Of a DNA stretch of 64,000 nucleotides, positions 12,143 through 30,409 are shown one piece after another. This stretch comes from Chloroflexota bacterium. Lineage in GTDB: Bacteria; Chloroflexota; UBA6077; SHYK01. Under the pieces are notes generated by a model, which worked only from the letters and a program-made list of their open reading frames with translations, ran no database searches and had not been told where the DNA came from. The stretch is from positions 2,282-66,281 of the forward strand of contig DASRDP010000084.1 in assembly GCA_035652535.1 (NCBI GenBank). The letters run 5' to 3'. Numbering within the stretch: position 1 is the first letter of the stretch; each line of letters starts with the position of its first letter. The position numbers and the translations under genes were made by a program.

Positions 12143-12232
12143 GCGAATATCCCGTCGAGGCGCTCGTGCAGGCGCTTCAGCGCATCGGCCGGCGCCATGA
12201 CGTGAACTAGCTCTTTCACGCGAATATCCCGT
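12079..12232. repeat. 77-bp tandem duplication (2 copies, 76/77 identical) covering the moeA start region
   Basis: Copy 1 at 12079-12155 and copy 2 at 12156-12232. The single mismatch is A12130 versus C12207. Confidence 0.95.
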
Positions 12233-12258
12233 ACATCCTGGCACGCGATTCAGGAGCT

Positions 12259-12324
12259 GTCATGCTGAGCGCAGCGAAGCATCTCGGTGAATCGAGATCC
12301 TTCGGGCTGCGCCCTCAGGACGAC
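12259..12324 (-). repeat. Palindromic intergenic element family 2, inverted orientation
   Basis: GTCATGCTGAGCGCAGCGAAGCATCTC...GAGATCCTTCGGGCTGCGCCCTCAGGACGAC. This is the reverse complement of the 8755-8816 copy except for the central loop. Confidence 0.9.
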
Positions 12325-12353
12325 GCATTCCCCAACCTGCGAGGCAAACCTGG

Positions 12354-13166: not shown

Positions 13167-15079
13167 TCCGGCTCGCTCCACGCCGCGAACTCCTCCAATC
13201 CGAGGCGTTCGAGGGTCTCTCGGAACGGCCGGCCCGTCATCTCGTCGCGCCCAGAGAGCCGGTAATACTCCTGGATGATGCCGGGCATGAACTTCGCGAT
13301 GGTGAAGCCCTTGTACTGGCCATCCGGAATCGGCTCGAGGAAGCGCGGCCCAACGTCCGTCCAATCGTGCTCCGCGCGCCAGCCGCGCTGGGTGCCGAAG
13401 ATGCTCTGAAGGATCATGCTTCGGTGGCCGACCTCGAGCGCCTCGTCGAGAGTCACGTCCCAGCCGGTCGTCGCGTTCAGCGCATCGATCATGGACTTGT
13501 ACCCGTCGGGCGCCATCTGGTTCATGGCGAACCAGCACGCGCCCATCAGGCCGGAGGATTGGCGATACTGCTCGCTGAGGATGTGGGACCAGGCCCAGCC
13601 GTCCGGCTCCGTTGGCGAGAGCGGCCCCCAGCTCTCGCGGTACTTCAGGTCCGGCGGCGGCTCGCGGCTGCCGCCGCCCTGCGGCTTCATGCCGCCGCTG
13701 GCCACCAGCTCGCGCAGCATGTTGCCGATCATCGGCCGCCACTCGTGCTGCGCCGGCGTCCCACCTTTGGTGTGGACCACCCACTGGGCGGCGTCGCCGC
13801 CGAGGGCTTCTGCCAGCTCCTTCGGGCCCTCGGCGAGGAGGTTCCCGAGCCAGCCCTCGCGCCGAGCGCACATGTCGAGCAGCCGGTCCACGACGGCTGT
13901 GTCGCCCCATTCAAGGTTCAGGCCGCCCGTTTGCTGCGCGGTCAGGAGCCTCTTTTCCCACGCCTCGAAGGCGAGCCCAGCTCCGTCGGCGAAATGGCTG
14001 CACTCGATGCCGAGGTCGTTGATGCGCTCCGAGAGGTAGAGCACGTCGTTGCCCTTGATGTCGAGGTTGAAGAAGGTGTCGAGCCATTCGGAGCCGGCGT
14101 TGAAGTGGACCTTGGCGCCGATGTGGTCGCCGTCGCCCAGCTCGGCGTCCCAGGGGCACATGCGACCGCATTGGAAGCAGGGGCGGGGCGTGATGCGGTT
14201 CGTCTCGAAGCCGCGCGCGTGGTCTTCGATCACGGTGGCGCGCCAGTTGTGGCGGGTGATGGCGCCCCACGAGCCACCATGGCCGACGTCGCGGCGCTGG
14301 TCGGGCGAGTAGACGCGGAGCGTTGCGCGCCAGCGCTCGCCCGCGTCGATGAGTCGCTCCTTGTTGCGGATGGGTGGGCGCCGCGAACCTCGGGCGACGA
14401 CGGCCTTGAGCCTCTTGGAGCCCATGACGGCGCCGAGACCGTGCGCGGCTACGTGGTTGTAGTCGTTCACCAGCATCGCCGCGCGGATGAGGTTCTCGCC
14501 GGCGGGGCCGATGCACGCGACGCGCGCATCCTGGCGGCCGACCTGGCGGCGGAGCATCTCTTCGGTCTCGCGGGTGCCCTTTCCCCACACGGACCGCGCG
14601 TCGCGGATCTCGGCGCGCCCGTCGTTCAGGTAGAGGTACACGGGGCGATCGGACTGGCCCGTGATGATGATTCCGTCGAAGCCGGCAGCCTTCATCGCCA
14701 CGGCCCAGAAGCCGCTCGTCGCGCCGCGGCCGAGGGTGTAGCGCGTGGCCGGGCTGGGATAGACGGCGGTCATCTTGGTGCCGCCGGGCGTGAGGCCGGT
14801 GCCGGTGACCGGCCCGGTCATCATACAGATCATGCTCGCCGGGCTATAGGCCTCGGTGTCCGGCGCTATCTCATTCAGGAGGATGTACGTCCCAAGTGCC
14901 TGGCCGCCCCAGTACTTCCGGAGAATCGGCTCTTCGGGCAGCTCGACGGGCTCGCAGCTCCCCGAGGTGAGGTCGACGCGGAGCAGCTTGCCCATGTACC
15001 CGCCCGGCAGCGGAGTCCTGCGCACCGATGGGAAGAGCAGCTCGTTGCGCGAGGCTAGGACCTGGGGTTGCGTCGCCAT
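13163..15079 (-). CDS. aor: Aldehyde:ferredoxin oxidoreductase family (tungsto-/molybdopterin) enzyme
   Basis: 638-aa ORF with the AOR N-terminal signature GKLLRVDLTSG...YWGGQALGTYIL and the C-terminal AFOR domain. ATG 15079 has GGAGG 6 nt upstream; an internal ATG at 14995 is an alternative start. Confidence 0.85.
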   Translation of the reverse strand: MATQPQVLASRNELLFPSVRRTPLPGGYMGKLLRVDLTSGSCEPVELPEEPILRKYWGGQALGTYILLNEIAPDTEAYSPASMICMMTGPVTGTGLTPGGTKMTAVYPSPATRYTLGRGATSGFWAVAMKAAGFDGIIITGQSDRPVYLYLNDGRAEIRDARSVWGKGTRETEEMLRRQVGRQDARVACIGPAGENLIRAAMLVNDYNHVAAHGLGAVMGSKRLKAVVARGSRRPPIRNKERLIDAGERWRATLRVYSPDQRRDVGHGGSWGAITRHNWRATVIEDHARGFETNRITPRPCFQCGRMCPWDAELGDGDHIGAKVHFNAGSEWLDTFFNLDIKGNDVLYLSERINDLGIECSHFADGAGLAFEAWEKRLLTAQQTGGLNLEWGDTAVVDRLLDMCARREGWLGNLLAEGPKELAEALGGDAAQWVVHTKGGTPAQHEWRPMIGNMLRELVASGGMKPQGGGSREPPPDLKYRESWGPLSPTEPDGWAWSHILSEQYRQSSGLMGACWFAMNQMAPDGYKSMIDALNATTGWDVTLDEALEVGHRSMILQSIFGTQRGWRAEHDWTDVGPRFLEPIPDGQYKGFTIAKFMPGIIQEYYRLSGRDEMTGRPFRETLERLGLEEFAAWSEPE

Positions 15080-15778: not shown

Positions 15779-16031
15779 ATGTGGGGGCTGCTTAGGCGAT
15801 CGCTATGGTTCAACCTCCGCCTATGGACTGGGCCTCTGTCTTTTATCGCAATTAGCCCATTTTTCGCCCTCATCGCCCTGCTTGTCCTCTCTGATCAAAA
15901 AGCTCGGCGCTTGGTCAGGTCCCCGTCCGTTGGTCAGGTCCCCGTCCGGAAAGATGATGTTAGAGATGTCCGTGCTGCAAATGGTCGGTGCAGTTCTCTT
16001 TGTGGCTCTCTGGGGTTCTTATCACCGCTGA
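15779..16031 (+). pseudogene. Small two-TM membrane-protein gene interrupted by a 19-bp tandem duplication (reconstructed product 77 aa)
   Basis: ATG 15779 reads MWGLLRRSLWFNLRLWTGPLSFIAISPFFALIALLVLSDQKARRLVRSPS. Removing one repeat copy continues GKMMLEMSVLQMVGAVLFVALWGSYHR and stops at TGA 16029-16031. As sequenced, the frame runs on antisense through vapC to 16276. Confidence 0.4.
15911..15948. repeat. Perfect 19-bp tandem direct repeat x2 (TTGGTCAGGTCCCCGTCCG)
   Basis: Copies at 15911-15929 and 15930-15948 are identical. Confidence 0.95.
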
Positions 16032-16459
16032 ACGCGCCTTTCCACTTCAGGAACCCGGTCGAAGTCGCGATCAAAGCTCAGGATCTCCCTCAAGCCGAGG
16101 CGGCGCATATGGGCAACGTTGAGGGCGTCGACGAAGTCGAGAAATTGGTACTGGGTGAAAAGGTCCAACGCCTGCAGATACGTTCGTTTGTTCGCGAGCG
16201 AGAGACCTTTCAGCCGCAGCAATGGGCTCAGCAAGCGCTGAACTTCGTCGCGCGGGACGTTGTAGAGGGTCTTTGAGGTTAGGACCCACACGACCTCTAT
16301 GATGACGCCCTCGCAGGTCGCGGCCGACAGCGCTCCTGAGTCGAGTTGCTGAATGATGGCTTGGGCTTGTTGTGTCTGAGCCGCAAGTTGCGGCTCGGTC
16401 GGACCGGGCTGGATTAGGTAGCGCAGGAAGATGTTCGTGTCGATGAAAGCGGTGGCCAT
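16022..16459 (-). CDS. vapC: PIN-domain toxin VapC
   Basis: 145 aa. FIDTNIFLRY at the N-terminus (first acidic residue), and DALNVAHM...SFDRDFDR at the C-terminus. Lies immediately downstream of an AbrB-type antitoxin gene. Confidence 0.85.
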   Translation of the reverse strand: MATAFIDTNIFLRYLIQPGPTEPQLAAQTQQAQAIIQQLDSGALSAATCEGVIIEVVWVLTSKTLYNVPRDEVQRLLSPLLRLKGLSLANKRTYLQALDLFTQYQFLDFVDALNVAHMRRLGLREILSFDRDFDRVPEVERRVQR

Positions 16460-16467
16460 CCCCCGGC

Positions 16468-16728
16468 CTATTCGCCCTCTCGCGCAACATGTCGAACATG
16501 TTCCCGGGCGGCCTCCTCCGTGATCTCTTTGTCTGTCAGTGGACGATCAAGCGGGGGAATCGCCTGGAAGCTGGCTTCAAGGGACGAGACCGCAGGCGCC
16601 AGTCTGACACATCCATCTTCGAGCGTGAATGTGACTTTGTCGCGTGGCTTGATGCCGAGGGATCGGCGGACCTCCAACGGGATGGTGATTTGGCCTTTTT
16701 CGCTCACGGTGCTCACGAATAGTCTCAT
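16468..16728 (-). CDS. vapB: AbrB/MazE/SpoVT-family antitoxin VapB
   Basis: 86 aa with the swapped-hairpin motif VSEKGQITIPLEVRRSLGIKPRDKVTF. There is an 8-nt gap to vapC. Confidence 0.85.
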   Translation of the reverse strand: MRLFVSTVSEKGQITIPLEVRRSLGIKPRDKVTFTLEDGCVRLAPAVSSLEASFQAIPPLDRPLTDKEITEEAAREHVRHVAREGE

Positions 16729-17041: not shown

Positions 17042-18703
17042 ATGCCGTTCGATCTGGTCATTCGCAACGGAACGGTCATCGACGGGACCGGCGCGCCGCG
17101 GTTCGATGCCGACGTCGGCGTGGAGGGCGACCGAATCACGGCGATCGCGCCCAAGCTGGGGCCGGGCGCGCGAGAGATCGACGCGCGCGGCCACGTGGTG
17201 GCGCCGGGATTCATCGACGCTCACACCCACATGGACCTGTTCCTCGTCCTCTACCCCCACGGCAACCCGGTCGTGAACTTCGGAGTGACGACGGTGGTGA
17301 TCGGGGACTGCGGCGCGTCCGTTGCCCCCGTGCCCGACGGGACGGAGCCGACCGCGGTGCTGGTGAACTACCTGCGTCGAGTGTTGGACGACTACATCGA
17401 CGCCGACGCGTGGCAGTGGAAGAGCTACCCAGATTACCTCGCTTACCTACGGGGGAAGGTCGGCATCAACGTCGCCGCGCTCGTGCCCCATTCGCCGGTG
17501 CGGCTGGCCGTGATGGGCGAGGCCGCGTATCAGCGGGAAGCGTCGCCGGACGAGATCACCGCCATGCAGCGCATGGTGCGGGAGGCGATGCGGGCCGGCG
17601 CCGTCGGCTTCTCGACGAGCCCGCGGGGCGGGCCGGAAGTCCACGCGGGGACGCCCAGCACATTTGCGACGCAGGACGAGATCGTGGCGCTGGCCGACGT
17701 CGCACGGGAGTACGGCGGGTGCTTCCAGTTCAACGGCTTCGGCAACCTCATCAAGCCGGAGACGGGAGCGGCCGCGCTCCTTGAACGCATCAATTCCCTC
17801 ATGATCGGCAACGAGTTCCGCCTCCATCCGGGCGAGCCCGACGAGGCGGCGCGATCCCTCGCCTTCATGGAGGACGCGAGCCTTCGTGGGAAAGATCTGA
17901 CCGGTGTGGTCATCCCGTACCAGCACATCCGCCGCTTCGGCGTCAACGACGCGTTCCTCTTCGACGGGCTGCCGGCGTGGGAGGAGCTGAAGGGAAGCGG
18001 TGGCGACCGACGCGCCCGGCTGCTGGACCCGGACTTTCGCCGCCGGCTGGAGCGGGAGCGGATAGCAGGCGCAGGGAAACCCGCGTTCCCGGAGTGGAAC
18101 GGCTGGGGGAGCGTGGTGTTCGACCGAATGGACCGCGCCGGTCTCAAGCAGCTCGAGGCGCGGGACGTGGCGGAGGTCGCGCGGGCGTCCGGGAAGGAGC
18201 CGGCGGACGCGTTCTTCGACGCCTGGGTCGAGGACGACCTGCGCTCGCGCTTCGTCTATCGCGGCCTCGCCAACGGGAACCTGGATGACCTTGCCGAGAT
18301 GATTCGCTCCCCGCACAGCTTGATCGGCACCGACTGCGGCGCGCACCTCGACCGCTTCTTCTGGCACGGCACGCCCGCGCGCCTCATCGGCCACTGGTGG
18401 CGGGAGAAACAGCTCTTTCCGAGCCTCGAGCAGGCGGTGTGGAAGATCACGGGGTACCCGGCGGAGAAGCTCGGCTTCGAGCGGGGACGCATCCAGCTCG
18501 GGCTGCCGGCCGACATCACGGTCTTCGACCCGAACCGCTATCAGGACCTGGTCATGGAGCGGCTACCAGAGCGGGTGGACGCCGCCGAGGTGCAGCGGCA
18601 CCCGCCGGGAGTCCACGCGGTCGTCGTCAACGGTCAGGTCGTCGTCGAGGACGGCGAGTGCATGGACGCCTTTCCTGGCATCGTCGCGCGCCGAGATCTG
18701 TAG
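17042..18703 (+). CDS. N-acyl-D-amino-acid deacylase (D-aminoacylase) family amidohydrolase
   Basis: 553 aa. N-terminus DLVIRNGTVIDGTGAPRFDADVGVEGDRITAI...GFIDAHTHMD is typical of the D-aminoacylase family. Confidence 0.8.
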   Translation: MPFDLVIRNGTVIDGTGAPRFDADVGVEGDRITAIAPKLGPGAREIDARGHVVAPGFIDAHTHMDLFLVLYPHGNPVVNFGVTTVVIGDCGASVAPVPDGTEPTAVLVNYLRRVLDDYIDADAWQWKSYPDYLAYLRGKVGINVAALVPHSPVRLAVMGEAAYQREASPDEITAMQRMVREAMRAGAVGFSTSPRGGPEVHAGTPSTFATQDEIVALADVAREYGGCFQFNGFGNLIKPETGAAALLERINSLMIGNEFRLHPGEPDEAARSLAFMEDASLRGKDLTGVVIPYQHIRRFGVNDAFLFDGLPAWEELKGSGGDRRARLLDPDFRRRLERERIAGAGKPAFPEWNGWGSVVFDRMDRAGLKQLEARDVAEVARASGKEPADAFFDAWVEDDLRSRFVYRGLANGNLDDLAEMIRSPHSLIGTDCGAHLDRFFWHGTPARLIGHWWREKQLFPSLEQAVWKITGYPAEKLGFERGRIQLGLPADITVFDPNRYQDLVMERLPERVDAAEVQRHPPGVHAVVVNGQVVVEDGECMDAFPGIVARRDL

Positions 18704-18957: not shown

Positions 18958-19965
18958 TTAGAGCGCGCCCTGCTCGCGGTAGTAGCGCTCCGCGGCCGGA
19001 TGGAGCGGCACGTCGAGCGGGCACGCGTCCGAGCTGATGCAGAGGTCGCGCAGCGTCACCGTCCCCTCCGCATCCCACTGCACGAGCGGGCGCACCGCGT
19101 CGAGCGCTTTGGCCATCGCGTACGCCAGCTCGTCGGACAGGTCGGCCCGAGTGAAGAGCGGCCATCCGCTGAAGCTCACCGCGGTCACGTCCTCGTTCAG
19201 CTCCGGGAACTCGTCGCGCGCCACGGGGATGACGGGCCACCCCAGCTCGCGGATGCGCGCCTCGCCGGCGGCGCCGAGGGACAGGAACTCCATCCCGGAC
19301 TCGAGGGCGATGTGCCCCCAACCGGAGATCCCTTCGTCGAACACCGCGTCCACGGACCCGTCGCGCATGCCATTGATCCGCGCGGCTTCGCGTGGCCGCT
19401 CGATGAGCTGAAGAGAGCCGCCCCACCGCTCCACGTCGGCGAGCGAGAAGCCGTAGGCTCCCAGCACCTGGTCGACGACGAAGCGGGTGGCATTCTTCGG
19501 GTCGGCACGGACGGAGATTCGCAGCGGCACCCGTCGCTCGGCGATCTCAGCCACCGACGAGATGCCGTGGCGCCGCGAGACGGCGAACACGTGCCAGTCC
19601 AGCGACGGCATGACGCCGATGGCGCGAAGGGGGAGGGGACGGCTGAAGGGGCCCACGCCTCGGTAGGCCATCGTGAGATACGCTGATGGGTTGAAGACGC
19701 CCAGGTCAATCCGGCCGCTCGCCACCTCCTCCGCGGGGTTCGGCGTGTCCGACGCGAGGACCACGCGCGGGGCAAAGGGCCCGTTCCTGGCGGAACCGAC
19801 CGACACGCGGATCTCGCGAAGGGCGCCATCGAGGGTCGTCCGGTCGAACGTGAGCGCGACCGCCATTTGCGCGATGGCGAAGGTGCGAATGTCCGGCGCG
19901 TTGGGCGGGCGAAATGGATCCGCGTCCCGGGTCGCCGCCGATCGAAAGGGCACCGCCTCTGCCAT
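18958..19965 (-). CDS. TAXI-family (TRAP solute-receptor-like) binding-fold protein with no signal peptide
   Basis: Probable ATG 19965 (GGGGGAAG upstream; the track ORF extends to 20085). C-terminal VPLHPAAERYYREQGAL and an AY.G.GPF core resemble TAXI receptors. The N-terminus is hydrophilic. Confidence 0.55.
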   Translation of the reverse strand: MAEAVPFRSAATRDADPFRPPNAPDIRTFAIAQMAVALTFDRTTLDGALREIRVSVGSARNGPFAPRVVLASDTPNPAEEVASGRIDLGVFNPSAYLTMAYRGVGPFSRPLPLRAIGVMPSLDWHVFAVSRRHGISSVAEIAERRVPLRISVRADPKNATRFVVDQVLGAYGFSLADVERWGGSLQLIERPREAARINGMRDGSVDAVFDEGISGWGHIALESGMEFLSLGAAGEARIRELGWPVIPVARDEFPELNEDVTAVSFSGWPLFTRADLSDELAYAMAKALDAVRPLVQWDAEGTVTLRDLCISSDACPLDVPLHPAAERYYREQGAL

Positions 19966-20050: not shown

Positions 20051-21211
20051 GTGAGGAATGGATTTCGTGTGTACGATGCGGACACCCACGTGCATGCGAC
20101 CGCGGAGAGCTTGAAACCGCATCTCAGCGCGGCGCTCCGCGAGCGCCTGCCAAATCTCGATGAGTTCGAGTCGCCATTTCGGACTGGCTGGGCCGGCGAG
20201 AAGCTCGAGCCGCCCTACCGCCACCTGTTCCGCTTCGAGCGCCGGGGTGGATGGGGCGGCGGACAGCCCCGGGTCCTGGGCGAGGCGGCTCCGCGAGAAA
20301 ACGCGTCGCGGGAGTTCCAGCACTTCATGGGGCGAGTCTTTCCCACGCCCGGAAGCTCGGATTACGACCCCGATGCCCGCATTCGCGACATGGACCGGGA
20401 AGGGGTAGACGTCCACATGATGGTGCCGGCCGGCCCCGTCGGCCACGCCGATCCGTGGATCGAGATGGAGTTCATTCGTGCCAACCATCGTTATCTCGAC
20501 GCCTTCTGCAGCGAATATCCCCACCGCCTGAAATCACTCATCGTCGTAACGCCGCGGTCCATCGAGGCGTCCGTTGAGGAGATCAAGCGGTGGGCGGGAT
20601 CGCCGTGGGCGGTGGGCGTGCAGCCGCACTTCCCGCTCGACTACCCGCTCGATCATCCGGACATGGACGCCATCTGGGCGGCAGCCGCCGACGCGGACCT
20701 GTGCATCGTGCACCACAGCTTCGCGTGGGGCTATCCGGGGTACCGGGATCTCTGGGACAACCCCTTCCTCGGGCGGATGGGCTCGCACCCATGGGCAGCC
20801 ATGCGCGCCGTGGCGGCCTTCTTCGGTTCGGGGATCATGGACCGCTTCCCGAGCATTCGCTTCGGAATTCTCGAATCGGGTTTCGGCTGGCTGCCGTTCT
20901 GGGCGCGCCGGATGGACGACCAGGCCGTATACATGGGGTACGTCGCGGAGAACCTGCAGCACAAGCTCAGCGAGTACATGACCGGCGGCCGGTTCTTCGC
21001 CAGCATCGTTCTCCACGAGGGGGAGCGAATGGCGCGCATGGTGATGGATGACCTGGGCGATCACGTCCTCATGTTCGGCTCGGACTATCCGCATGCTGAA
21101 TCGCGGTTTCCGGACTCGGCGGACACGGTGCTCGCGTGGTCGTCGCTCACCCCAGAGCGCATCCAGAAGCTGATGTGGGACAACCCGGTTCGCTTCTTTG
21201 GAGAGCCCTGA
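20051..21211 (+). CDS. Amidohydrolase_2 (ACMSD/LigW-type, COG2159) family protein, AH-1
   Basis: GTG 20051 is 4 nt after GAGGAGGA (20039-20046). Motifs: N-terminal YDADTHVH and C-terminal FGSDYPH. Confidence 0.8.
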   Translation: MRNGFRVYDADTHVHATAESLKPHLSAALRERLPNLDEFESPFRTGWAGEKLEPPYRHLFRFERRGGWGGGQPRVLGEAAPRENASREFQHFMGRVFPTPGSSDYDPDARIRDMDREGVDVHMMVPAGPVGHADPWIEMEFIRANHRYLDAFCSEYPHRLKSLIVVTPRSIEASVEEIKRWAGSPWAVGVQPHFPLDYPLDHPDMDAIWAAAADADLCIVHHSFAWGYPGYRDLWDNPFLGRMGSHPWAAMRAVAAFFGSGIMDRFPSIRFGILESGFGWLPFWARRMDDQAVYMGYVAENLQHKLSEYMTGGRFFASIVLHEGERMARMVMDDLGDHVLMFGSDYPHAESRFPDSADTVLAWSSLTPERIQKLMWDNPVRFFGEP

Positions 21212-22920
21212 TGCGCGTCGCCGGATGGCTCTTGGTCGCGCTGCTGGCCGCGAGCTGCGCGGGGCGCGCCGGCGCCCCTCCATCGTCAGCTCGCGAGGCT
21301 TCCGGCGGGGGCCAGGCCACGGCGTCGACGTCGGCTCCCAAGCGCATTGTCGCCGCGATCATGGGTGACCCGTTCACCGTCTACAACAAGCTGAATATCG
21401 CCAACTCCGTGCGCGGGATTTCCGAGATCGAGCGCATGGTCCACGCGGGGCTGAGTGTGACCGACACGACCGGTCAGCTTCGGCCCGAGCTGGCCGAGGC
21501 CGTTCCTTCGACCGACAACGGGCTCTGGCGGCTCCTCCCCGACGGCGGGATGGAGACCGAATGGCACATTCGCAGGGGGACCGTCTGGCAGGACGGCACG
21601 CCCTTTACCGCCGACGATCTCGTCTTTACGGTCGGCGTCTTGACCGACCCGGAGCTTCCGGTCTTTCGGCATCAGGGCTATCCCCTCATCCAGGGAGTCG
21701 AGGCCATCGATCCACAAACGGTCCTGGTGCGTTGGCGCCGACCCTACATCGACGCGGATCATCTCTTCAGCGACTCTATGGGGATGCCGCTCCCCCGCCA
21801 CCTCCTTGCCGACGCATACGCGACCGAGGAGAAGTCCAACTTCACGCAGCTCCCGTTCTGGAGCACGGATTTCGTCGGGCTCGGCCCTTTCAAGCTCAAG
21901 GAATGGGAGCGCGGCAGCCACGTCATCGTCGAGGCGAACGATCGGTTCGTCCTGGGCCGACCGAAGATCGACGAGATCGAGATCCGCACGATCCCCGATA
22001 CGAATGCGATTGTGGCGAGCGTGCTCTCCGGCAACGTCGACGTCGTTCTCGGCCGCGCCCTATCGGCGGACCAGGCGCTGCAGCTCCGCGACCGTTGGCC
22101 GGAGGGAAAGATCGAGACGCCGGTCACGAGTCTGATGATGATGTATCCCCAGCTGCTCAACCCCACGCCGGCGGTCGTGCTCGATCTGACGTTCCGGCGC
22201 TCGGTGCTGGAGGCCATCGACCGACAGCTCCTGGCGGACAGCATCGACTATGGCCTGACGCCGCCGGCCGATGGGTTCCTGGAGCCGACGCGGCAGGAGT
22301 ACAAGGACACCGAGGCGGCGATCGTCCGCTACCCGTACGACCCGCGGCTCGCAGGCCAGCAGATCGAGCGGCTGGGGTATGCGAAGGGGAACGACGGCTT
22401 CTTCCGCGACGCGACCGGCCAGCAGCTTCATCTCGAGATCCGGGCGACAGCGGGGGAGATCAATCCGAAGACGATGTACGCCGTCTCCGACATGCTGCAG
22501 CAGCTCGGCATCGCCGTCGATCCGGTCGTCATCCCGCTGCAGCGGGTCTCTGACGAGGAGTACCGCTCCCAGTTCCCCTCGTTCACTGTCAACGGGCAGC
22601 CCATCGATCTGCGCTTCTTCTCCCGCTTCCACAGCAATCAGGCGCGGCTGGCGGAGAACAACTTCGTGGGCGAAAATCGTTCGCGGTACATGAACCCGGA
22701 CCTGGATGCGCTCATCGACCGTTACCTGGTAACGATCCCGCACGCGGAGCGCGTGGCGCTCGAGAGCGAGATCACCCACCACGTGACCGAGAACCTACCG
22801 CTGCTCCCGCTCTTCTACGACACGTGGCCGGGCGTCACCAGCAAGCGGCTGGCCAACGTTGGCGCGGCGGCGTCGGGCGGCGACGCGGCATGGAACGCGC
22901 GGGAGTGGGACACGGCGTAG
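21211..22920 (+). CDS. Family-5 (peptide/nickel-type) ABC substrate-binding lipoprotein, SBP5-1
   Basis: ATG 21211 shares one nt with the AH-1 stop (TGATG). Signal sequence MRVAGWLLVALLAASC. Family block PDGGMETEWHIRRGTVWQDGTPFTADDLVF ... GRPKIDEIEIRTIPD. Confidence 0.85.
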   Translation: MRVAGWLLVALLAASCAGRAGAPPSSAREASGGGQATASTSAPKRIVAAIMGDPFTVYNKLNIANSVRGISEIERMVHAGLSVTDTTGQLRPELAEAVPSTDNGLWRLLPDGGMETEWHIRRGTVWQDGTPFTADDLVFTVGVLTDPELPVFRHQGYPLIQGVEAIDPQTVLVRWRRPYIDADHLFSDSMGMPLPRHLLADAYATEEKSNFTQLPFWSTDFVGLGPFKLKEWERGSHVIVEANDRFVLGRPKIDEIEIRTIPDTNAIVASVLSGNVDVVLGRALSADQALQLRDRWPEGKIETPVTSLMMMYPQLLNPTPAVVLDLTFRRSVLEAIDRQLLADSIDYGLTPPADGFLEPTRQEYKDTEAAIVRYPYDPRLAGQQIERLGYAKGNDGFFRDATGQQLHLEIRATAGEINPKTMYAVSDMLQQLGIAVDPVVIPLQRVSDEEYRSQFPSFTVNGQPIDLRFFSRFHSNQARLAENNFVGENRSRYMNPDLDALIDRYLVTIPHAERVALESEITHHVTENLPLLPLFYDTWPGVTSKRLANVGAAASGGDAAWNAREWDTA

Positions 22921-23128: not shown

Positions 23129-24130
23129 TCATGGCTCCACCGGCTCGGCACGAGCGGCCCCTTGGGCCTCGGCGGCGATCTCGCTGAGCAGGCGGAAGTC
23201 GATGTTCCCGCCGCTCAACACCAGCACCACGCGCTTGCCGGGCATCCCTACCGCGCCGCTCATGAGCGCGGCGAGGGGGACGGCCCCCGCGCCCTCGGCG
23301 ACCAGCTTCGCCCGCTGCAGGAGCGCCGCGACGGCGGGGCGGATGTCGGCGTCGGACACCTCGATGGCGTCGTCGACACACCGCTGGATGACCGCAAAGG
23401 GAATGGCGCCGAGTCGCTCGACCGCGATCCCGTCCGCGATGGTGTCGCCCACCGGAACGGCGACCGGCGATCCAGCCTTGAGTGACGCGGACAGGGAGGG
23501 CGCGGCGGCGGATTGCACGCCGATCACGGCTGCGCCCGGAAGCGAGGCCTTCACCGCCAGCGCGACGCCGGCGATGAGCCCGCCGCCGCCGACGGGAACG
23601 AGGACCGCGTCGAACTCGGACAGCTCATCGAGGATCTCGAGGCCGATGGTGCCCTGGCCGGCGACGATGGCGGGGTCGTCGAAGCCGGGAATCATCGTCA
23701 GGCCGCGCTCCCGCTGCACCTCCACCGCCCGGTCGTGGGCGTCGTCGTAGTGCGCGCCGTGCAGGATCACCTCGGCGCCGTATGCCCGTGATGCCGCGAC
23801 CTTGCCTTCGGGCGCTGTCGCGGGCATCACCACCACGGCGGTGACGCCCGTGAGCGCGGCCGCAACTGCGACACCCTGCGCATGGTTGCCCGCGCTGGCC
23901 GCGACCACGCCGCGTTGTCGCTGCTCGGGCGCGAGCTGGAGGATCTTGTTGAGGGCGCCGCGCAGCTTGAAGGACCCGGTGCGCTGGAGCATCTCGGCCT
24001 TCACGAAGAGGTCGAGCCCGAGCCTGCGGCTCAAGGCATGGGAGTGGAAGAGCGGCGTGCGCCGCACCGCGGTTCGAATGCGCTGGCGCGCGGAGACGAT
24101 ATCTTCAAAGGAAACGGGCATCGGATCCAC
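23129..24130 (-). CDS. PLP-dependent threonine/serine dehydratase-like enzyme (fold-type II)
   Basis: 333 aa. PLP-lysine motif TGSFKLRGALNK and glycine loop GGGGLIAG. GTG 24130 has GAGGTG 8 nt upstream. Confidence 0.8.
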   Translation of the reverse strand: MDPMPVSFEDIVSARQRIRTAVRRTPLFHSHALSRRLGLDLFVKAEMLQRTGSFKLRGALNKILQLAPEQRQRGVVAASAGNHAQGVAVAAALTGVTAVVVMPATAPEGKVAASRAYGAEVILHGAHYDDAHDRAVEVQRERGLTMIPGFDDPAIVAGQGTIGLEILDELSEFDAVLVPVGGGGLIAGVALAVKASLPGAAVIGVQSAAAPSLSASLKAGSPVAVPVGDTIADGIAVERLGAIPFAVIQRCVDDAIEVSDADIRPAVAALLQRAKLVAEGAGAVPLAALMSGAVGMPGKRVVLVLSGGNIDFRLLSEIAAEAQGAARAEPVEP

Positions 24131-24350: not shown

Positions 24351-25541
24351 ATGTTGACGGCAGAGGAGAACGAACGACTTACCCAGGTTGGGCCTGGCAC
24401 GCCGATGGGGGAGCTTCTTCGGCGGTACTGGCACCCGATCGCTGCGACCCTCGACCTGGACTCGGACCCGGTGCGCCCCGTCCGTCTGCTGGGCGAGAAT
24501 CTGGTCTTGTATCGGGATGAGGCGGGCCGGATCGGGCTCGTCGCCGAGCGGTGCGCCCATCGCGGCATCTCGCTGGCATACGGCATCCCGCAAACGGGTG
24601 GGCTCCGCTGCGCGTATCACGGCTGGACCTACGACCAGCAGGGCCACGTCGTCGACATGCCGTTTGAGCCTGCGTGCCTCCCCCTCAAGATCGCCGCGTA
24701 CCCGGTGGAGGAGTTCGCTGGCCTGATCTGGGCTTACCTCGGACCTCAGCCAGCGCCGCTGGTGCCCCACTGGGACCTGCTCACGCGCGATGATCTGGAC
24801 AAGCAGATCTCGATCCGCGAGCTGCCGTGCAACTGGCTCCAGTGCATGGACAACTCCCTCGACCCGCTCCACTTCGAGCACCTCCACGGGGTATACGGCA
24901 ATTACCTCATGAAGAAGCTGAATCGGCCGCCGATGTTGACCGTCGCGCGGCACATCAAGCTCGATTTCGAGGTGTTCGAGTACGGGATCTACAAGCGGCG
25001 TCTCGTGGAGGGTCAGTCGGAAGACTCGACGGACTGGACGGTTGGCCATCCCATTCTTTTCCCGAACACGCTCGCGCAGGGTGGGCCCGAGCAGATGAGC
25101 ATCCAGATTCGCGTTCCCATCGATGACACGCACACGCTCCACGTCTGCCTCGACGGGATTGCGCCCCTCGGCGGGCGGCCAGCTCGGAAGGATGTGCCCG
25201 TGGTTCACGAGCCCGTCGAGTACGACGAGCTGGGGCGCGTCTTCGCCGACGTCATCGTGAAGCAGGACGAGATGGCGTGGATCGGCCAGGGACCGATCAG
25301 CGACCGCACCGCCGAGCACCTCACGACGGGCGACAAAGGGATCCTGCTGTACCGAAAAGTGATCCTCGAAAATCTCGAGAAGGTCGCCCGCGGCGAAGAC
25401 CCCATGGGGGTGATTCGGGACCCGGCGCAGAACGAGCCCTGCATCCCCATCAAGCAGGGGAGCAATTACACCGCGTTCCGGGTCGGTGTGGGCGACACGT
25501 GGCACAACCTGCCGCGCGAGGCCGTCGGCACAACCGCCTGA
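24351..25541 (+). CDS. Rieske [2Fe-2S] non-haem-iron oxygenase alpha subunit, phthalate-dioxygenase-like family
   Basis: ATG 24351 follows GAGGAGG. N-terminus EENERLTQVGPGTPMGELLRRYWHPIA. Rieske ligands CAHRG ... CAYHGW. Confidence 0.85.
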   Translation: MLTAEENERLTQVGPGTPMGELLRRYWHPIAATLDLDSDPVRPVRLLGENLVLYRDEAGRIGLVAERCAHRGISLAYGIPQTGGLRCAYHGWTYDQQGHVVDMPFEPACLPLKIAAYPVEEFAGLIWAYLGPQPAPLVPHWDLLTRDDLDKQISIRELPCNWLQCMDNSLDPLHFEHLHGVYGNYLMKKLNRPPMLTVARHIKLDFEVFEYGIYKRRLVEGQSEDSTDWTVGHPILFPNTLAQGGPEQMSIQIRVPIDDTHTLHVCLDGIAPLGGRPARKDVPVVHEPVEYDELGRVFADVIVKQDEMAWIGQGPISDRTAEHLTTGDKGILLYRKVILENLEKVARGEDPMGVIRDPAQNEPCIPIKQGSNYTAFRVGVGDTWHNLPREAVGTTA

Positions 25542-25624: not shown

Positions 25625-26575
25625 TCAGAAGGGGAGGGGCGCTCCCACGCCGCGCTCCCGTGCGCGCTCGTATACGATCGCGGCGGCGGCCACGTCCTCC
25701 AGCGCGATGCCCTGGGATTCGAAGAGGGTGATCTCGTCGTCGGACCGTCGGCCGGGCATCAGGCCCGCGACGATGGGCCCCAGCTCCCAAACCTTGTCCC
25801 ACGAGAGCAGTCCTCGCTCGACGGGCCACGCCAGATCGCCGCTCTCAAGCATCGCCGCCTCGCGGTCGTCCACGGCGATGGTGCCTGCCCGCGTCACAGC
25901 GATCTCGTCCAGCTCCCGGTTGATGCGCACGTTCCCGCCGGCGGCGTTTACGTGGGTCCCGGGCTCCAGCAGGTTGCCGTCGAAGACCGGCTCCGCCGCG
26001 TTGGTCATGGTGATGACGATGTCCCGACCGCGAACGGCCTCCGATGAGGACTCGACCGGGCGCACCTCCTGCTCGAGGATGGCCGTCATCTTTTCGGCGA
26101 ATGCGCGGCGTCGCTGCGCGTCGCGGCTGTAGACGGCGATGGATTCGAGCTTCCGCACCTGGGCAACGGCGAGGATTTGGGTTTCGGCCTGGTGCCCGGT
26201 GCCGATGCAGCCGAGCCGCGAGGCGTTCGGCCGCGCCATGTACTTGGTCGCCACGCCGGACGCGGCCCCGGTCCGGACCTGGCCCAGACGGCCGGAGCGC
26301 AAGAACGCGACCATCCCTTCCCCTGCTTTGTAGAGCACGACATCCTGTCCGCGGGAAGCGCCGTACGCTTTGAAACCCAGGTAGCCCTTCTCCATCAGGC
26401 TCGCGGCCATGAGGTGAAATCGACGGCGCTGGAAGGGGAGCCGTCGACGGGGCTGGATGGCGGCCGCTCCGACCGCCTTGTCGCGGAAGGCGTCCTCCAG
26501 GGCGGCGATACACGAGTCCATGTCCAACAGCTCCGCGACCTGGGTCTCGTCAAGGAAGATGGCCACGGGTGGCAC
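25625..26575 (-). CDS. Ornithine cyclodeaminase / mu-crystallin family protein, OCD-1
   Basis: 316 aa. VRTGAASGVATKYMAR...GCIGTGHQAE (Rossmann) and NAAGGN are typical of the family. Confidence 0.8.
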   Translation of the reverse strand: MPPVAIFLDETQVAELLDMDSCIAALEDAFRDKAVGAAAIQPRRRLPFQRRRFHLMAASLMEKGYLGFKAYGASRGQDVVLYKAGEGMVAFLRSGRLGQVRTGAASGVATKYMARPNASRLGCIGTGHQAETQILAVAQVRKLESIAVYSRDAQRRRAFAEKMTAILEQEVRPVESSSEAVRGRDIVITMTNAAEPVFDGNLLEPGTHVNAAGGNVRINRELDEIAVTRAGTIAVDDREAAMLESGDLAWPVERGLLSWDKVWELGPIVAGLMPGRRSDDEITLFESQGIALEDVAAAAIVYERARERGVGAPLPF

Positions 26576-26686: not shown

Positions 26687-27670
26687 ATGGCCCGACCACG
26701 CTACGCGCGTCCCGTGACGACGCGCTCCGTCCTGGTCTTTCAGATCGCCGAGGAGCTGGCACGAGACAACACGTGGCCCTATCAGCAGGGCCGCGTGGTG
26801 ATGCGTCCCCAGGGGGGAGACGCGCCGGGCGTCTCGCTCTTCGGGAGTGACAGCCCCGAGGCCATCGACCTCGTCGCGCGCGGGGAGGTGCAGCTCGCCA
26901 TCGTGAACCCAGCGGCTCCCCTCACCCTCGCGTATCGCGGAACGGGGCCTTTCAAGGAGGCCATCCCAGTGCGGACCATCGCCGTCATCCATTCGCGCGA
27001 TGCGTTCGCCTTCGCCGTGAGCGAGAAGTCGGGTATCACGTCCCTGCGCGACATCAAGGAGCGCAAGTATCCACTCAGGGTCACCCTCAGAGGACAGCGC
27101 GACCACGCGAATCACTTCCTCGAGCGGGTCGTGCTCGGAGAGTACGGGATTACCTACGAAGACATCGAGGCGTGGGGAGGGCAGGTTCGATTTGATCCGG
27201 GTCTCCCGACCGGCACGTCAACGTCGGGGGCTGACATCGCGCACTCCCGGATCGATCTGGCGCGCGAGGGCGCCGTCGACGCCATCTTCGACGAGGCGGT
27301 CGGCACGTGGGTCGGGCTCGCGCTCGACGCCGGCATGCGGATCCTGTCGCTCGAGGAGCCGATGGTTCAAAAGCTCGAGGCGATGGGATTTCGGCGATCG
27401 ATCCTGGCAAAGTCGCAGTGGCCCAAGCTTCCGGCGGACGCCCTCAGCCTCGACTTCAGTGGCTGGCCCATTTACACGCACGCCAACGTGCCGGACGACG
27501 TCGTTCGCGCCTTCTGCGCGGCGCTGGAGGCCCGGAAGGACCGCATCCCCTGGCAGGGGGAGGGGCCGCTGCCCCTCGATCGGATGTGCAAAGACTCCCC
27601 CGAGGGGCCCCTCGACGTCCCACTCCACCCTGCCGCGGAGCAATTCTGGCGGGAACGGGGCTACCTGTAG
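26687..27670 (+). CDS. TAXI-like binding-fold protein with no signal peptide (paralogue of 18958..19965)
   Basis: ATG 26687 (the track ORF begins at GTG 26654). Motifs LAIVNPAAPLTLAYRGTGPF and C-terminal VPLHPAAEQFWRERGYL. Confidence 0.55.
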   Translation: MARPRYARPVTTRSVLVFQIAEELARDNTWPYQQGRVVMRPQGGDAPGVSLFGSDSPEAIDLVARGEVQLAIVNPAAPLTLAYRGTGPFKEAIPVRTIAVIHSRDAFAFAVSEKSGITSLRDIKERKYPLRVTLRGQRDHANHFLERVVLGEYGITYEDIEAWGGQVRFDPGLPTGTSTSGADIAHSRIDLAREGAVDAIFDEAVGTWVGLALDAGMRILSLEEPMVQKLEAMGFRRSILAKSQWPKLPADALSLDFSGWPIYTHANVPDDVVRAFCAALEARKDRIPWQGEGPLPLDRMCKDSPEGPLDVPLHPAAEQFWRERGYL

Positions 27671-27675: not shown

Positions 27676-29382
27676 CTACGGATGCAGGTTCGCCACTCCC
27701 GGTAGGACGCAGTCGATGTCCGTGTATCCGAGCAGCGTACCGCTGTGAACCGCGGCGAGCGCATAACAGGTAAATCCGTTCGTCGCGGCCAGGGTGCTCT
27801 GAATCGTGCCGGCCAGCGGCTGGGTTAGGCCACCAAGCGTCACCAGGAGATAGCCGTCCTGTCCGTCGCCGACTGGCTGGTTCCAGGTGAGGGTGGTCAC
27901 GTTCGACTGGTTCAGCTTCACGGTGAAGTTCTGTGGCGCGCCGGTTGGTGTATGGAAACCGACGAGCGCACAGAGGACGTCAGAGATCTGCTGCGGGCTG
28001 GGACCCAGCGGAAGCACCGCGTAGCAGTCGAGGTCCGCGGGCGGCGATGTGTCCACGAACGAGATGGCGCTGGACGGGAGCGGCGTCGAGGGGAGGATGG
28101 CGAGAGTGCCGTTCGACATGCGAAGCCGCGCGATCAGATACCCGGTCTGTCCGGTGCCCGAATTCCAGCTCAGATGAACGCCCGCGCTGTCGGAGCTGAG
28201 GGCGAATCCCTTCCCGCCGATGGGGCCGCCGGTCGAGGTTGGCGTGGGTGTGGGCCCGCCGGGAAGCGACGGATCGATCACCGTGACGGTGTACGTGAAA
28301 TTCCTCGGCACACCGAAAACCCGAACATTCGAGACGTTTACCGTGTACGTGGTGTCGGGGCCCGATCCGAAGCTCGCTGTCGGGGCCCACACGATGGTGT
28401 TGTCGCCGAACCCATTTTGAATGGGCTGCACCACCACGGAAATCGGCGTGGCCCCCTGGGTCATCGTGACGGACGCAAGGCTGAAGTCGGCGCTGGGATA
28501 CGAGAATGACCACCGCGTCGGCGTGATCTGGAAGGGGATGAATCCCTGGGGCGGCCACGCCACGAACTCGGGCGACGCGGGCCGTATGCCGAAGCTGCCG
28601 ATCACGTCGAGGTCGTTGGACCCGGTGAAGCCGCCATTGGTCGCCGTCGTCGACCCCGTCCCCATCGACGTCTGGGGCGGGTAGAGGATCCAGCGTCGGT
28701 GGCCGACCGCGGTGTTCGTCGTGCCTTCGTCTGCGACGTACGCCATGACGGCGGCGGGTCCATGCGTGCCCAGCGCGAGGTTGGACGTCCCCGCCGCGAC
28801 TGCTCCCGAAGGCGTGTAACACGTGAACGTCGGGTCCGGGAAGTGGGAGAGACGGCCGCTGGCGATCATCATCAGCGCGGCCTGCTGGTCGTTCACACTG
28901 CGGGCCGTGTCGAGCGTCACATTGTCCGGCAATCCCGCCATCGCACGAAAGTAATTGACCGTGCTGATCGTGGCGGCCTGGTACGCATCGCTGTTGGTTC
29001 CTGCGACGCACCCGGCGATGCTGCCGGTCCAGCCGGCCGGAACGGCGAGGGCCGGCACGAGCACGGTGTTGTAGAGATTCACGACGGCCGTCCGGTCCAT
29101 CGTATTGACGGCGAATGCGCCGGCCTTCGGCTCCGCGCTCACGGTGGGCTGGAGAACAGAGGAGTCCGTGACCTGGGGCGGCGGACCGAGCTCGACGCCC
29201 GGGTTCGATTGGGCCGATGCGACCGTGGCCGACAGGGTGTCGAAGATGTCTCCACCGGCGACGCTCCGGAGCGGGGCCGGACCGAGCTGTGACACCAGCA
29301 GGGCGAGGGTGGCTGTAACCGCGAGGGGACGCCAGGAGACGGGGCGACCGGTCACATGGGGGACGCGGGTCAGTAAACGCAT
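27676..29382 (-). CDS. Secreted CAP/SCP (PR-1-like) domain protein with Ig/FN3-like C-terminal modules
   Basis: ATG 29382 with AGGAGAG upstream. Signal/TM WRPLAVTATLALLVSQL. CAP-like block YFRAMAGLP...NDQQAALMMIASGRLSH...VGHRRWILYP. Pro/Thr linker PTPTPTST. Two FN3-like repeats (HLSWNSGTGQTGY and TLTWNQPVGDGQDGY). Confidence 0.7.
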   Translation of the reverse strand: MRLLTRVPHVTGRPVSWRPLAVTATLALLVSQLGPAPLRSVAGGDIFDTLSATVASAQSNPGVELGPPPQVTDSSVLQPTVSAEPKAGAFAVNTMDRTAVVNLYNTVLVPALAVPAGWTGSIAGCVAGTNSDAYQAATISTVNYFRAMAGLPDNVTLDTARSVNDQQAALMMIASGRLSHFPDPTFTCYTPSGAVAAGTSNLALGTHGPAAVMAYVADEGTTNTAVGHRRWILYPPQTSMGTGSTTATNGGFTGSNDLDVIGSFGIRPASPEFVAWPPQGFIPFQITPTRWSFSYPSADFSLASVTMTQGATPISVVVQPIQNGFGDNTIVWAPTASFGSGPDTTYTVNVSNVRVFGVPRNFTYTVTVIDPSLPGGPTPTPTSTGGPIGGKGFALSSDSAGVHLSWNSGTGQTGYLIARLRMSNGTLAILPSTPLPSSAISFVDTSPPADLDCYAVLPLGPSPQQISDVLCALVGFHTPTGAPQNFTVKLNQSNVTTLTWNQPVGDGQDGYLLVTLGGLTQPLAGTIQSTLAATNGFTCYALAAVHSGTLLGYTDIDCVLPGVANLHP

Positions 29383-29737
29383 CCGTGCTCTCCTGCACAA
29401 TCGGCTCGTCGCCGATGCATGCGCCAGCCGGCACAGCGCCGTCCGCGGTGCGGCTTGACGAACCGTGAAAAATTATGCCGTACTGTTACCAGTGGGGCCA
29501 GCCACTCGGTCGCAGAATTGCCCGATTTGTTGCGCGAATCGGTGTGAAACCATCAACACGGGGGCATCCGGACGGACTGATCCACCCGTTCGCAGGGCGC
29601 GCCCCCGCAAAGACGAACCTGTAGCTCAGCTGTGACGCCCGCGGACAATGCACCGTGCTATGCTCCCGCCGTGGTATAAGCTGCCGCCGGGCGACCCCAT
29701 CGTGTTGCGGCAGCGAGCGGCGCTGGGGTTTCACGGA

Positions 29738-30409
29738 ATGGCGCAGAAGATCCTCGTCGTTGACGACGACAAAATGCTTCGCGATACGATCGAGTTCGTG
29801 CTCTTGACCCAGGGGTACGAAGTCATGATGGCTGTCCACGGTATGGAAGCCCTCCGCATCCTCCAGCGCGAAACGCCCGACGTCATTATTCTGGACCTCA
29901 ATATGCCGGTCATGGACGGGGTTGAATTCGCGCGGCAGTATCGCCGCAGCGGCGCTGCCGCGCCCATCATCCTGTGCACGGCCGACGACCCGTCCGTCGC
30001 AGGCATCAAGATCGGCGCGGCGGAGGTGCTGCGGAAACCGTTCGGTTTCTCTGCGCTGCTGGCAGCGGTGGAACGGCTTGCACACGGCAGCGCCGCGGCC
30101 GACGTCGGTGGAGCGTACGAGCCCCAACCGGCACGGAATGGGGCCGGCCGGCGAAAAATAGAAGAGCGCGGCCATGTCTCCGCCGCGGAGCCGAGGGTGG
30201 CCGTCGCAGCGGAGCACGAAGATGCGCCGCGCCCCGTAAATGGCACGACGGTTCCTTGCCGCGGCTGCCGCGCGATGATTCCCAGCCACCTCGCCTACTT
30301 CCTGCGCGGATACAAGGGTTACCGCTGCAGAACCTGCCACGACGCCCTCATCGATCGCATCGCCCGCCGTCAAGCCGCGCGGCCGCCTCGGAACCTCTTG
30401 ACGCGTTGA
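29738..30409 (+). CDS. Response regulator receiver domain with a C-terminal Cys4 (zinc-ribbon-like) tail
   Basis: ATG 29738 (the track ORF starts at 29648). REC motif KILVVDDDKMLRD...DVIILDLNMPVMDG...KP. Tail PCRGCRAMIPSH...YRCRTCHD. Confidence 0.75.
   Translation: MAQKILVVDDDKMLRDTIEFVLLTQGYEVMMAVHGMEALRILQRETPDVIILDLNMPVMDGVEFARQYRRSGAAAPIILCTADDPSVAGIKIGAAEVLRKPFGFSALLAAVERLAHGSAAADVGGAYEPQPARNGAGRRKIEERGHVSAAEPRVAVAAEHEDAPRPVNGTTVPCRGCRAMIPSHLAYFLRGYKGYRCRTCHDALIDRIARRQAARPPRNLLTR

Follow-up and report, generated by a model that had tools for sequence, protein, structure and literature searches.

In the canonical Dpp/Opp/Nik layout, the gene for a solute-binding protein of family 5 (SBP5, PF00496) stands beside a pair of BPD_transp_1 permease genes together with one or two ATP-binding cassette (ABC) ATPase genes. 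MppA of Escherichia coli is an orphan SBP5 that binds murein tripeptide and uses OppBCDF; its gene has no adjoining permease gene and lies within ~3 kb of mpaA and ycjG, the genes for the cytoplasmic enzymes of its ligand. In other transporter families, TphC with TpiBA and the Bug (TctC) proteins exemplify binding-protein genes located in catabolic operons, while the membrane parts are encoded elsewhere (PMC8556258, PMC5812351). Enzymes of the family PF04909 include ACMSD, LigW and gamma-resorcylate decarboxylases, as well as the amidohydrolase-related dinuclear oxygenases (AROs), among them 8sm6 to 8sm9, PtmU3, AibH2 and DitZ (PMC10811679, PMC10401708). In a 2026 study, AROs were defined by an N-terminal D-x-H motif and a C-terminal D-x-P-H-x-[D/E] motif; the C-terminal motif was reported to be absent in every characterised PF04909 hydrolase or decarboxylase, whose N-terminal motifs replace D-x-H, and the high-potential AROs were mostly without a Rieske ferredoxin (PMC13154177). 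Here, we describe a 64-kb stretch of DNA from a soil Chloroflexota (the window, meaning the whole stretch), in which a PF04909 gene (AH-1, AH-2, AH-3) stands next to the gene for an SBP5 lipoprotein three times: AH-1/SBP5-1 (pair 1), SBP5-2/AH-2 (pair 2) and SBP5-4/AH-3 (pair 3).

We propose that the transporter-less SBP5 receptors in these catabolic clusters and their neighbouring enzymes probably constitute receptor-plus-enzyme modules, the enzyme of pair 1 being most likely an ARO. As with TphC, whose gene belongs to the tph operon while TpiBA is encoded elsewhere, and with the Bug proteins, the binding-protein genes are found in catabolic operons near oxygenase genes; a great excess of binding proteins over translocators is likewise a feature of those systems. 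However, TphC and Bug serve secondary transporters of the tripartite tricarboxylate transporter (TTT) type in Proteobacteria, whereas the proteins described here are lipid-anchored ABC cluster-C proteins (PF00496) of Chloroflexota, and their recurrent partner is a PF04909 protein. MppA shares with them the PF00496 domain, the lack of an adjoining permease and the proximity to enzyme genes, but it is a single orphan and not part of a large expansion, its ligand is a peptide, and, unlike in pair 1, mppA is neither immediately beside its enzyme gene nor translationally coupled to it. An earlier note on this DNA had considered a receptor gene next to an enzyme gene, with no transporter between them, an unusual operon design; the examples of TphC/TpiBA, the Bug family and E. 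coli mppA show that orphan binding-protein genes in catabolic operons are documented. Our literature search found no description of this particular PF04909/SBP5 pairing in Chloroflexota.

The window has ~67% G+C and ~47-48 genes, which were called from third-position G+C and then assigned by Pfam (gathering scores 26.4 bits for PF04909 and 32.4 bits for PF00496). All three pairs were recovered where they had been placed before, and their Pfam domains hold; coordinates are collected in Table 1. The overlap in pair 1, previously read from the letters TGATG, was confirmed: the AH-1 stop codon TGA (21209-21211) and the SBP5-1 start codon ATG (21211-21213) overlap by 1 nt, the A being common to both (CCC TGA TGC), and an independent gene caller, applied to a public contig with an identical protein, also finds both genes and their 1-nt overlap. 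AH-1 starts with GTG, with GAGGAGG located 8 nt upstream, and the N-terminus of SBP5-1, MRVAGWLLVALLAASC, is a lipoprotein signal.

The enzymes of the pairs are distinguished by their metal-binding motifs. In all three AH proteins D-x-H lies on the first beta strand (modelled strand E8-14 in AH-1) and D-x-P-H on strand 8, where ACMSD, LigW and the gamma-resorcylate decarboxylases, which share the Pfam family and the TIM-barrel fold, carry H-x-H or E-x-H and D-x-P-F, respectively. Within the AH-1 family D11 and H13 are invariant; DYPHAE (residues 345-350) follows at least ~200 residues later and fits D-x-P-H-x-[D/E]. Of 80 homologous genome loci, 78 carry both ARO motifs and 79 carry DYPH[ASPC]E; both motifs also occur in 113 of 120 protein homologues. 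Among solved structures, AH-1 comes closest to 8sm8 (E=2e-15) and PtmU3 (E=7e-14), with ACMSD and LigW lower. The remaining first-site ligands of AROs are a His on strand 5 and a carboxylate on strand 6; here, H222 and E275 of AH-1 are matched by 'fHH' and 'lEGG' in 8sm8 and by 'iH' and 'aEAG' in PtmU3, and by this alignment they would be ligands; E275 ('ilESGFGW', beta6/strand 6) matches the ARO Glu at the position where ACMSD has its catalytic His228. The variable motif positions of AH-1 are polar or small (Thr, Ala), like those of high-potential diiron-type AROs. Thus, AH-1 shares with PtmU3, DitZ, SfbO and AibH2 the PF04909 fold, both motifs and the Glu at the strand of the ACMSD His, and permease components are often found near AROs. 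It differs from the solved AROs in being only ~20-23% identical to them, and no small (<250 aa) Rieske ferredoxin, a neighbour typical of the low-potential AROs only, was found near it, the nearby Rieske proteins being oxygenases of 396-428 aa with LigXa_C.

An ACMSD/LigW type was considered for AH-1 and judged improbable, given D-x-H in place of H-x-H or E-x-H, the Glu at the His228 position and the AROs as top PDB matches. We conclude that a dinuclear (Fe2-type) oxygenase of the ARO group, and not a decarboxylase, is the most likely identity of AH-1. AH-2 is assigned to the ARO clade, although without the last carboxylate: its top PDB matches are all AROs (8sm9, 7e-19, then PtmU3), and its putative strand-5/6 ligands align likewise with 8sm9 and PtmU3. 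Judged by sequence comparison, only AH-3 resembles ACMSD (6e-27) and LigW (8e-20), yet it carries DAH on strand 1 and E/T at the position of the catalytic His. The ACMSD/LigW type proposed earlier for the enzymes is therefore retained as a similarity of AH-3 and is not supported for AH-1 and AH-2. The functional divergence of the three, claimed on the basis of their motifs (DADTHVH, DMDTHIR and DTDAHFF with a conserved D(Y/F)PH, all of which are present), agrees with mutual identities of 23-32%, but the variable 'second His' (after D-x-H-x) is an unsound marker of it, because this position varies among AH-1 orthologs 62-87% identical, whereas the ARO ligands, D and H of D-x-H, are common to all three.

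It is unlikely, though this alternative retains some weight, that AH-1, AH-2 and AH-3 are all non-redox mononuclear decarboxylases or hydrolases of the ACMSD/LigW type acting on aromatic acids. All three match PF04909, and AH-3 has ACMSD and LigW as its nearest solved relatives. In a Foldseek search with the AlphaFold model of AH-1 (predicted local distance difference test, 81.5), SfbO, PtmU3, TruffO and AibH come first, with ACMSD, IDCase and LigW nearly as close (template-modelling (TM) scores 0.63-0.67). Moreover, bicupins, UbiD and Rieske oxygenases, enzymes characteristic of the breakdown of aromatics, are among the neighbours of the SBP5 subfamily. However, the motif pair of AH-1 is reported absent from characterised PF04909 hydrolases and decarboxylases, a Glu replaces the ACMSD His228, and AROs are the top PDB matches of both AH-1 and AH-2. 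In addition, the neighbours of pair 1, namely the EutB/threonine-dehydratase-like pyridoxal phosphate (PLP) dehydratase, the ornithine cyclodeaminase (OCD)/EutC-like protein and Amidohydro_3, look suited to N-containing or cyclic amino acids and not to aromatic acids, and they hint faintly at a cyclic or N-substituted amino-acid derivative as the compound handled there.

The receptors belong to an expanded family. The window holds six SBP5 paralogues in 64 kb (PF00496, 150-184 bits each), and not four or five. A lipobox signal peptide is found at the start of all SBP5 proteins, and the AH proteins are without signal peptide. SBP5-1 to SBP5-4 are mutually 41-44% identical, and SBP5-5 and SBP5-6 are 27-31% identical to the rest. 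No Dpp/Opp-type permease or ABC ATPase gene was found anywhere in the window, and no SBP5 gene in it shows the canonical Dpp/Opp/Nik layout; a single ABC permease, fused, PhnU2-like and of another class, is encoded in the pair-3 run. The earlier statement that no transporter lies between receptor and enzyme is thus true of every pair, although an ABC transporter of that other class (SBP_bac_1 with the fused permease) belongs to the operon of pair 3. A scan of metagenome contigs by SBP5 alignment yielded 80 loci with 107 SBP5 genes; there, BPD_transp_1 genes adjoin distant SBP5s alone (26-28% identity, in canonical operons) and never members of the subfamily. Relatives of SBP5 numbered 518 with a threshold of E<1e-30 and 821 with one of E<1e-100, and all organism-named ones are from Chloroflexota/Chloroflexi. 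The SBP5 genes therefore combine catabolic neighbours, no membrane partner of their own nearby and membership in an over-represented paralogous family, which is what characterises an orphan receptor in a catabolic cluster.

An improbable alternative is that these SBP5 proteins are ordinary peptide or nickel scavenging receptors located in flexible genome regions, with substrates unrelated to the adjoining enzymes. In sequence and fold they come closest to AppA, Thermus OppA, NikZ/NikA and GsiB, and the source annotations read 'peptide/nickel transport system substrate-binding protein'. The model of SBP5-1 has the bilobed cluster-C fold, with TM-scores of 0.70-0.77 to AppA, OppA and NikZ; this fold search gave generic cluster-C matches and no ligand clue. 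However, the identities are only 17-24%, and in NCBIfam all SBP5 scores are far below cut-off (the AH proteins have no match). The neighbours are oxidative and catabolic enzymes and not peptidases, the order and strand of SBP5-1 relative to AH-1 are conserved, and the ligands of family 5 also include opines, EDTA, sugars and signalling molecules.

The SBP5 proteins could also be sensors that, when loaded with ligand, signal to a membrane histidine kinase inducing the adjoining catabolic genes. Besides the lack of a transporter nearby, this view is favoured by the response-regulator gene that adjoins SBP5-2 and by a dCache histidine kinase gene two genes from an SBP5-3-like gene in the locus L172. 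Nevertheless, we regard it as very unlikely: no kinase or regulator adjoins pair 1, pair 3 or most of the related loci, and in the absence of an uptake route the cytoplasmic enzymes would get no substrate. The divergent spacer of pair 2 measures 122 nt and contains a 14-nt inverted repeat, CCTCCTCCGCGATG / CATGGCGGAGAAGG (86% complementary), which could be an operator.

Concerning the reading of receptor-plus-enzyme modules, the adjacency of PF04909 and SBP5 genes is non-random. When the order of the 47-48 genes of the window is permuted, each of the three PF04909 genes adjoins an SBP5 gene with P=0.0065 if five SBP5 genes are counted and P=0.011 with six. Near-complete members of the SBP5 subfamily have PF04909 on 8 of 100 assessable flanks, against a background of ~1.5% (binomial P=1.4e-4). 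Within 300 bp of the 107 SBP5 genes of the metagenome loci, the neighbours were another SBP5 (26), PF04909 (at least 9), BPD_transp_1 (9), Rieske/LigXa (7) and bicupin (6), and UbiD, PrpD and glyoxalase were found as well; these counts, like that of the flanks, are lower bounds, since a simple gene caller was used and some AH/SBP5 pairs visible at the level of open reading frames were missed. PF04909 is the commonest enzyme beside the SBP5 subfamily. The PF04909 partners at these loci are very diverse (22-50% identity to AH-1, AH-2 or AH-3), which means that the pairing at the family level arose or was kept many times.

Pair 1 is conserved. In all seven loci of the SBP5-1 clade (six relatives and the window), an ortholog of AH-1 lies immediately upstream of the SBP5 gene on the same strand, with SBP identities of 53-69% and upstream PF04909 genes of 386-403 aa. 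The SBP5 and AH identities and the spacers are 69%, 86% and 78 nt in L166; 70%, 85% and 184 nt in L168/L169; 55%, 75% and 58 nt in L170; and 54%, 78% and 0 nt (TAAATG) in L171, while the contigs P0123 and P0125, both with 66% SBP5 identity, have spacers of 85 and 110 nt. In the four loci with readable DNA (L166, L168, L170 and L171), the AH protein keeps both DTH and DYPHAE. The 1-nt overlap is confined to the genome of the window, with L171 nearest to it; translational coupling, put forward earlier as a feature of the pair, is accordingly not a conserved trait, given spacers of 0-184 nt in the relatives. The spacers of L168 (4817-5000) and L166 (9165-9242) are taken up by G+C-rich hairpin-forming repeats, e.g. 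CCCTCCCCCC...GGGGGGAGGG.

For pair 2, the sole clear ortholog of SBP5-2 (L108, 69%) ends at a contig edge on the AH-2 side. In pair 3, the gap between SBP5-4 and AH-3 is 16 nt, including a GGAG Shine-Dalgarno sequence, and AH-3 starts with GTG; in a promoter scan of the pairs, a strong promoter-like site was found for pair 3 only. One relative, L173, has an SBP5-4 ortholog (57%), a spacer of 52 nt and an AH-3 ortholog (60%), together with an SDR (50% identical to the SDR of the window), a Rieske oxygenase and another SBP5.

The AH-1 family extends far beyond the SBP5-1 clade. It was found at 497 loci in species-representative genomes, with 60-87% identity over the full length and in at least six phylum-level groups; copies occur in tandem in L006, and four loci come from one Chloroflexota genome. 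For the neighbourhood survey, 80 homologue loci from such genomes were used, 60-76% identical to AH-1 and belonging to Chloroflexota, Binatia, Alpha- and Deltaproteobacteria, Gemmatimonas, Verrucomicrobiia and Acidiferrales; the AH gene was uncalled in 13 of the 80, leaving 67 analysed for neighbours. The commonest neighbours are SBP_bac_1, major facilitator superfamily (MFS) proteins, a second PF04909, the fused permease, TctC, TctA, luciferase-like monooxygenases and Rieske oxygenases. SBP_bac_1 occurs in 13 of the 67 loci and the fused permease in 5, the same duo as in the pair-3 operon. An uptake component lies no more than two genes away in 30/67 loci, in agreement with the 40% co-occurrence with permeases reported for AibH2-like proteins (PMC10401708); these neighbour counts, too, are lower bounds. 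The general rule is an AH-1-type enzyme beside some uptake protein, and SBP5 as the partner is limited to one Chloroflexota clade.

Several observations weigh against the receptor-plus-enzyme reading. On the side of conservation, locus L165 has an 86% AH-1 ortholog without SBP5, amid orthologs of Amidohydro_3 (77%), the Rieske oxygenase RO1 (82%) and OCD (79%), and among the 80 AH-1 homologue loci any SBP5 is found within 6 kb in seven and beside the AH-1 homologue in only two. It follows that the AH-1 enzyme does not depend on the SBP5-1 receptor, and SBP5-1 is a clade-specific addition, in one Chloroflexota clade, to a conserved cluster of AH-1, Amidohydro_3, Rieske oxygenase and OCD. A PF04909 gene is absent beside the SBP5-4 relatives in L174 and L175 (56-59%), so that pair 3 is kept in one of three relatives. 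The question of the earlier note, whether the adjacency is conserved in related genomes, is thus answered positively for pair 1 and by the enrichment of PF04909, but the association is one-sided; elsewhere, transporters of other types are the partners of most AH-1 homologues. As to its question about co-evolution, the pairwise AH and SBP identities of pair 1 do co-vary (r=0.96; 5 loci, 10 non-independent comparisons; the SBP changes ~2x faster), but as any two linked genes would show such covariation, it is evidence of co-inheritance only and not of functional co-evolution. On the side of function, the last carboxylate of the ARO motif is missing in AH-2 (DYPHTG) and AH-3 (DFPHGV), fold comparison of the predicted structure alone does not separate AROs from ACMSD/LigW, and the closest solved relatives of the SBP5 subfamily bind peptides, nickel chelates, glutathione or EDTA. 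Finally, no RNA runs carrying the window sequence were found; only soil and mine DNA metagenomes carry it.

The slimmest chance is given to the explanation that SBP5 genes, at about one gene in eight, land beside expanded families including PF04909 by hitch-hiking and have no functional link to them: six SBP5 genes among ~48, ~87% of the SBP5 subfamily without a PF04909 neighbour, and the AH-1 homologues and pair-3 relatives without the pairing speak for it, but the permutation (P ~0.01), the enrichment over background and the constant order and strand of pair 1 in 7/7 loci down to 53% SBP identity speak against it, and for pair 1 it is largely refuted.

With regard to the modules of receptor and enzyme, the following mechanism can be suggested. 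One subfamily of SBP5 (cluster C) lipoproteins would have multiplied into many orphan copies inside catabolic clusters, each copy being co-expressed with the cytoplasmic enzyme or enzymes for one compound, in the case of AH-1/SBP5-1 via the stop/start overlap. The partner enzymes would be PF04909 proteins above all, followed by Rieske/LigXa oxygenases, bicupins and UbiD. The SBP5 receptor would bind the compound at the cell surface and pass it to a shared Dpp/Opp-type translocator presumably encoded elsewhere, and the adjoining enzyme would then convert it in the cytoplasm. For pair 1, a dinuclear centre would probably hydroxylate or dealkylate the compound in an O2-dependent reaction, alongside the Rieske oxygenase. 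Co-transcription of the paired genes, a match between ligand and substrate, the shared translocator and the oxygenase chemistry are predictions of this scheme; the observations behind it are the gene identities, the orphan status, the non-random adjacency, a pair 1 that is conserved and co-inherited, and the ARO signature.

Table 1. Positions of the paired genes, their neighbours and other features in the 64-kb window
Feature	Positions	Strand	Remarks
AH-1	20051-21211	+	PF04909, E=1.7e-20, 74.4 bits; 386 aa; cytoplasmic; D11-T-H13 and D345-Y-P-H-A-E350
SBP5-1	21211-22920	+	PF00496, E=1.3e-47, 163 bits; 569 aa; orphan lipoprotein, lipobox LLAAS/C
SBP5-2	30480-32207	-	orphan SBP5 lipoprotein, lipobox IVTG/C; divergent from AH-2
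Inverted repeat	32223-32250		SBP5-2/AH-2 spacer
AH-2	32330-33538	+	PF04909, E=3.6e-30, 106.1 bits; DTH, DYPHTG
Sigma-70-like promoter match	50999-51026	+	TTGACA-16-TACAAT, 11/12; ~90 nt 5' of SBP5-4; consensus match only
SBP5-4	51117-52841	+	orphan SBP5 lipoprotein; first in + strand run of seven genes
AH-3	52858-53994	+	PF04909, E=5.6e-21, 76.0 bits; DAH, DFPHGV; closest to ACMSD/LigW
Short-chain dehydrogenase/reductase (SDR)	54070-54816	+	pair-3 run
SBP_bac_1 gene	54915-56084	+	pair-3 run
Fused PhnU2-like ABC permease	56123-57865	+	pair-3 run; partner is SBP_bac_1 54915-56084; no ATPase gene
RO2, Rieske/LigXa_C oxygenase	57902-59188	+	pair-3 run
SBP5-3	39094-40809	-	orphan SBP5 lipoprotein, between MFS gene and molybdopterin hydroxylase gene
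SBP5-5	59310-61040	+	orphan SBP5 lipoprotein, downstream of RO2
SBP5-6	~62372 to beyond 64000	+	SBP5 lipoprotein, lipobox LFTA/C; runs off window end
Amidohydro_3 gene	17042-18703	+	Pfam; syntenic with AH-1 in L165
PLP dehydratase	23129-24130	-	threonine-ammonia-lyase/EutB-like; above threonine ammonia-lyase cut-off, close to EutB
RO1, Rieske/LigXa_C oxygenase	24351-25541	+	Pfam; ortholog directly adjoins AH-1 ortholog in L165
OCD-family, EutC-like gene	25625-26566	-	syntenic with AH-1 in L165
Second OCD/EutC-like gene	43194-44186	+
TAXI-type solute-binding gene (NMT1_3)	18958-19965	-	divergent from AH-1
TAXI-type solute-binding gene (NMT1_3)	26687-27670	+
PIN/MazE pair	16022-16728	-	toxin-antitoxin
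Response-regulator gene	29636-30409		adjoins SBP5-2
Cofactor block	8834-15079	-	tungsten/molybdenum
CAP/SCP-domain protein	27676-29400	-
EmrAB-like efflux operon	44260-47285	+
Fibronectin-III-domain protein	49775-50917	+
MetE-like protein (Meth_synt_2)	61058-62650	-	530 aa; sole domain C-terminal

The surroundings of pair 1 contain further features. The promoter scan gave no sigma-70-like match around the pair, and the terminator scan around it gave a single match, on the minus strand inside RO1, no more than shuffled sequences give. The pair-1 cluster is flanked by two genes for solute-binding proteins of TAXI-type TRAP (tripartite ATP-independent periplasmic) transporters, the first of them separated from AH-1 by ~85 nt; neither has a DctQM membrane partner nearby, so that a second binding-protein family is present here as orphans. 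Just upstream of the cluster lies the toxin-antitoxin pair, and in L166 a different one, PIN/PhdYeFM (7095-7790, minus strand), stands immediately upstream of the AH/SBP5 ortholog pair; these pairs may mark a flexible genome region.

Elsewhere in the window, the tungsten/molybdenum cofactor block comprises two MoeA genes (one fused to PBP_like), a ferredoxin-like gene and an aldehyde:ferredoxin oxidoreductase gene, and the EmrAB-like operon consists of a MarR regulator, an HlyD-type adaptor and an MFS pump. The gene for the MetE-like protein stands between SBP5-5 and SBP5-6 and is divergent from the latter. The CAP/SCP-domain and fibronectin-III-domain proteins, both probably extracytoplasmic, are encoded beside the SBP5 clusters.

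Novel in this system are the scale of the family-5 expansion, the phylum in which it is found, PF04909 proteins as recurrent partners and the connection with an ARO subfamily that is very large and uncharacterised. Tentatively, and with odds that we put below even, soil Chloroflexota could possess an ABC counterpart of the Bordetella Bug system, in which dozens of orphan SBP5s, each with one oxidative enzyme, would feed one or a few promiscuous Dpp-like translocators, and AH-1/SBP5-1 would then reveal the imported substrate of a very widespread ARO subfamily. This compound may be derived from an amino acid, in cyclic or N-substituted form, and not be an aromatic acid. Binding proteins are easy to screen for ligands, and an SBP kept beside an enzyme is a direct route to the substrate of that enzyme; the uncharacterised AH-1 family has many members and is conserved to an unusual degree, and very few natural substrates are known for AROs (Fe2 or Mn/Fe). 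The expansion of orphan receptors extends beyond the TTT and TRAP systems of Proteobacteria to family 5 of the ABC systems in a soil phylum that is abundant and uncultured, which is relevant for carbon and nitrogen turnover as read from soil metagenomes, where these SBP5s routinely receive the annotation 'peptide/nickel transport'.

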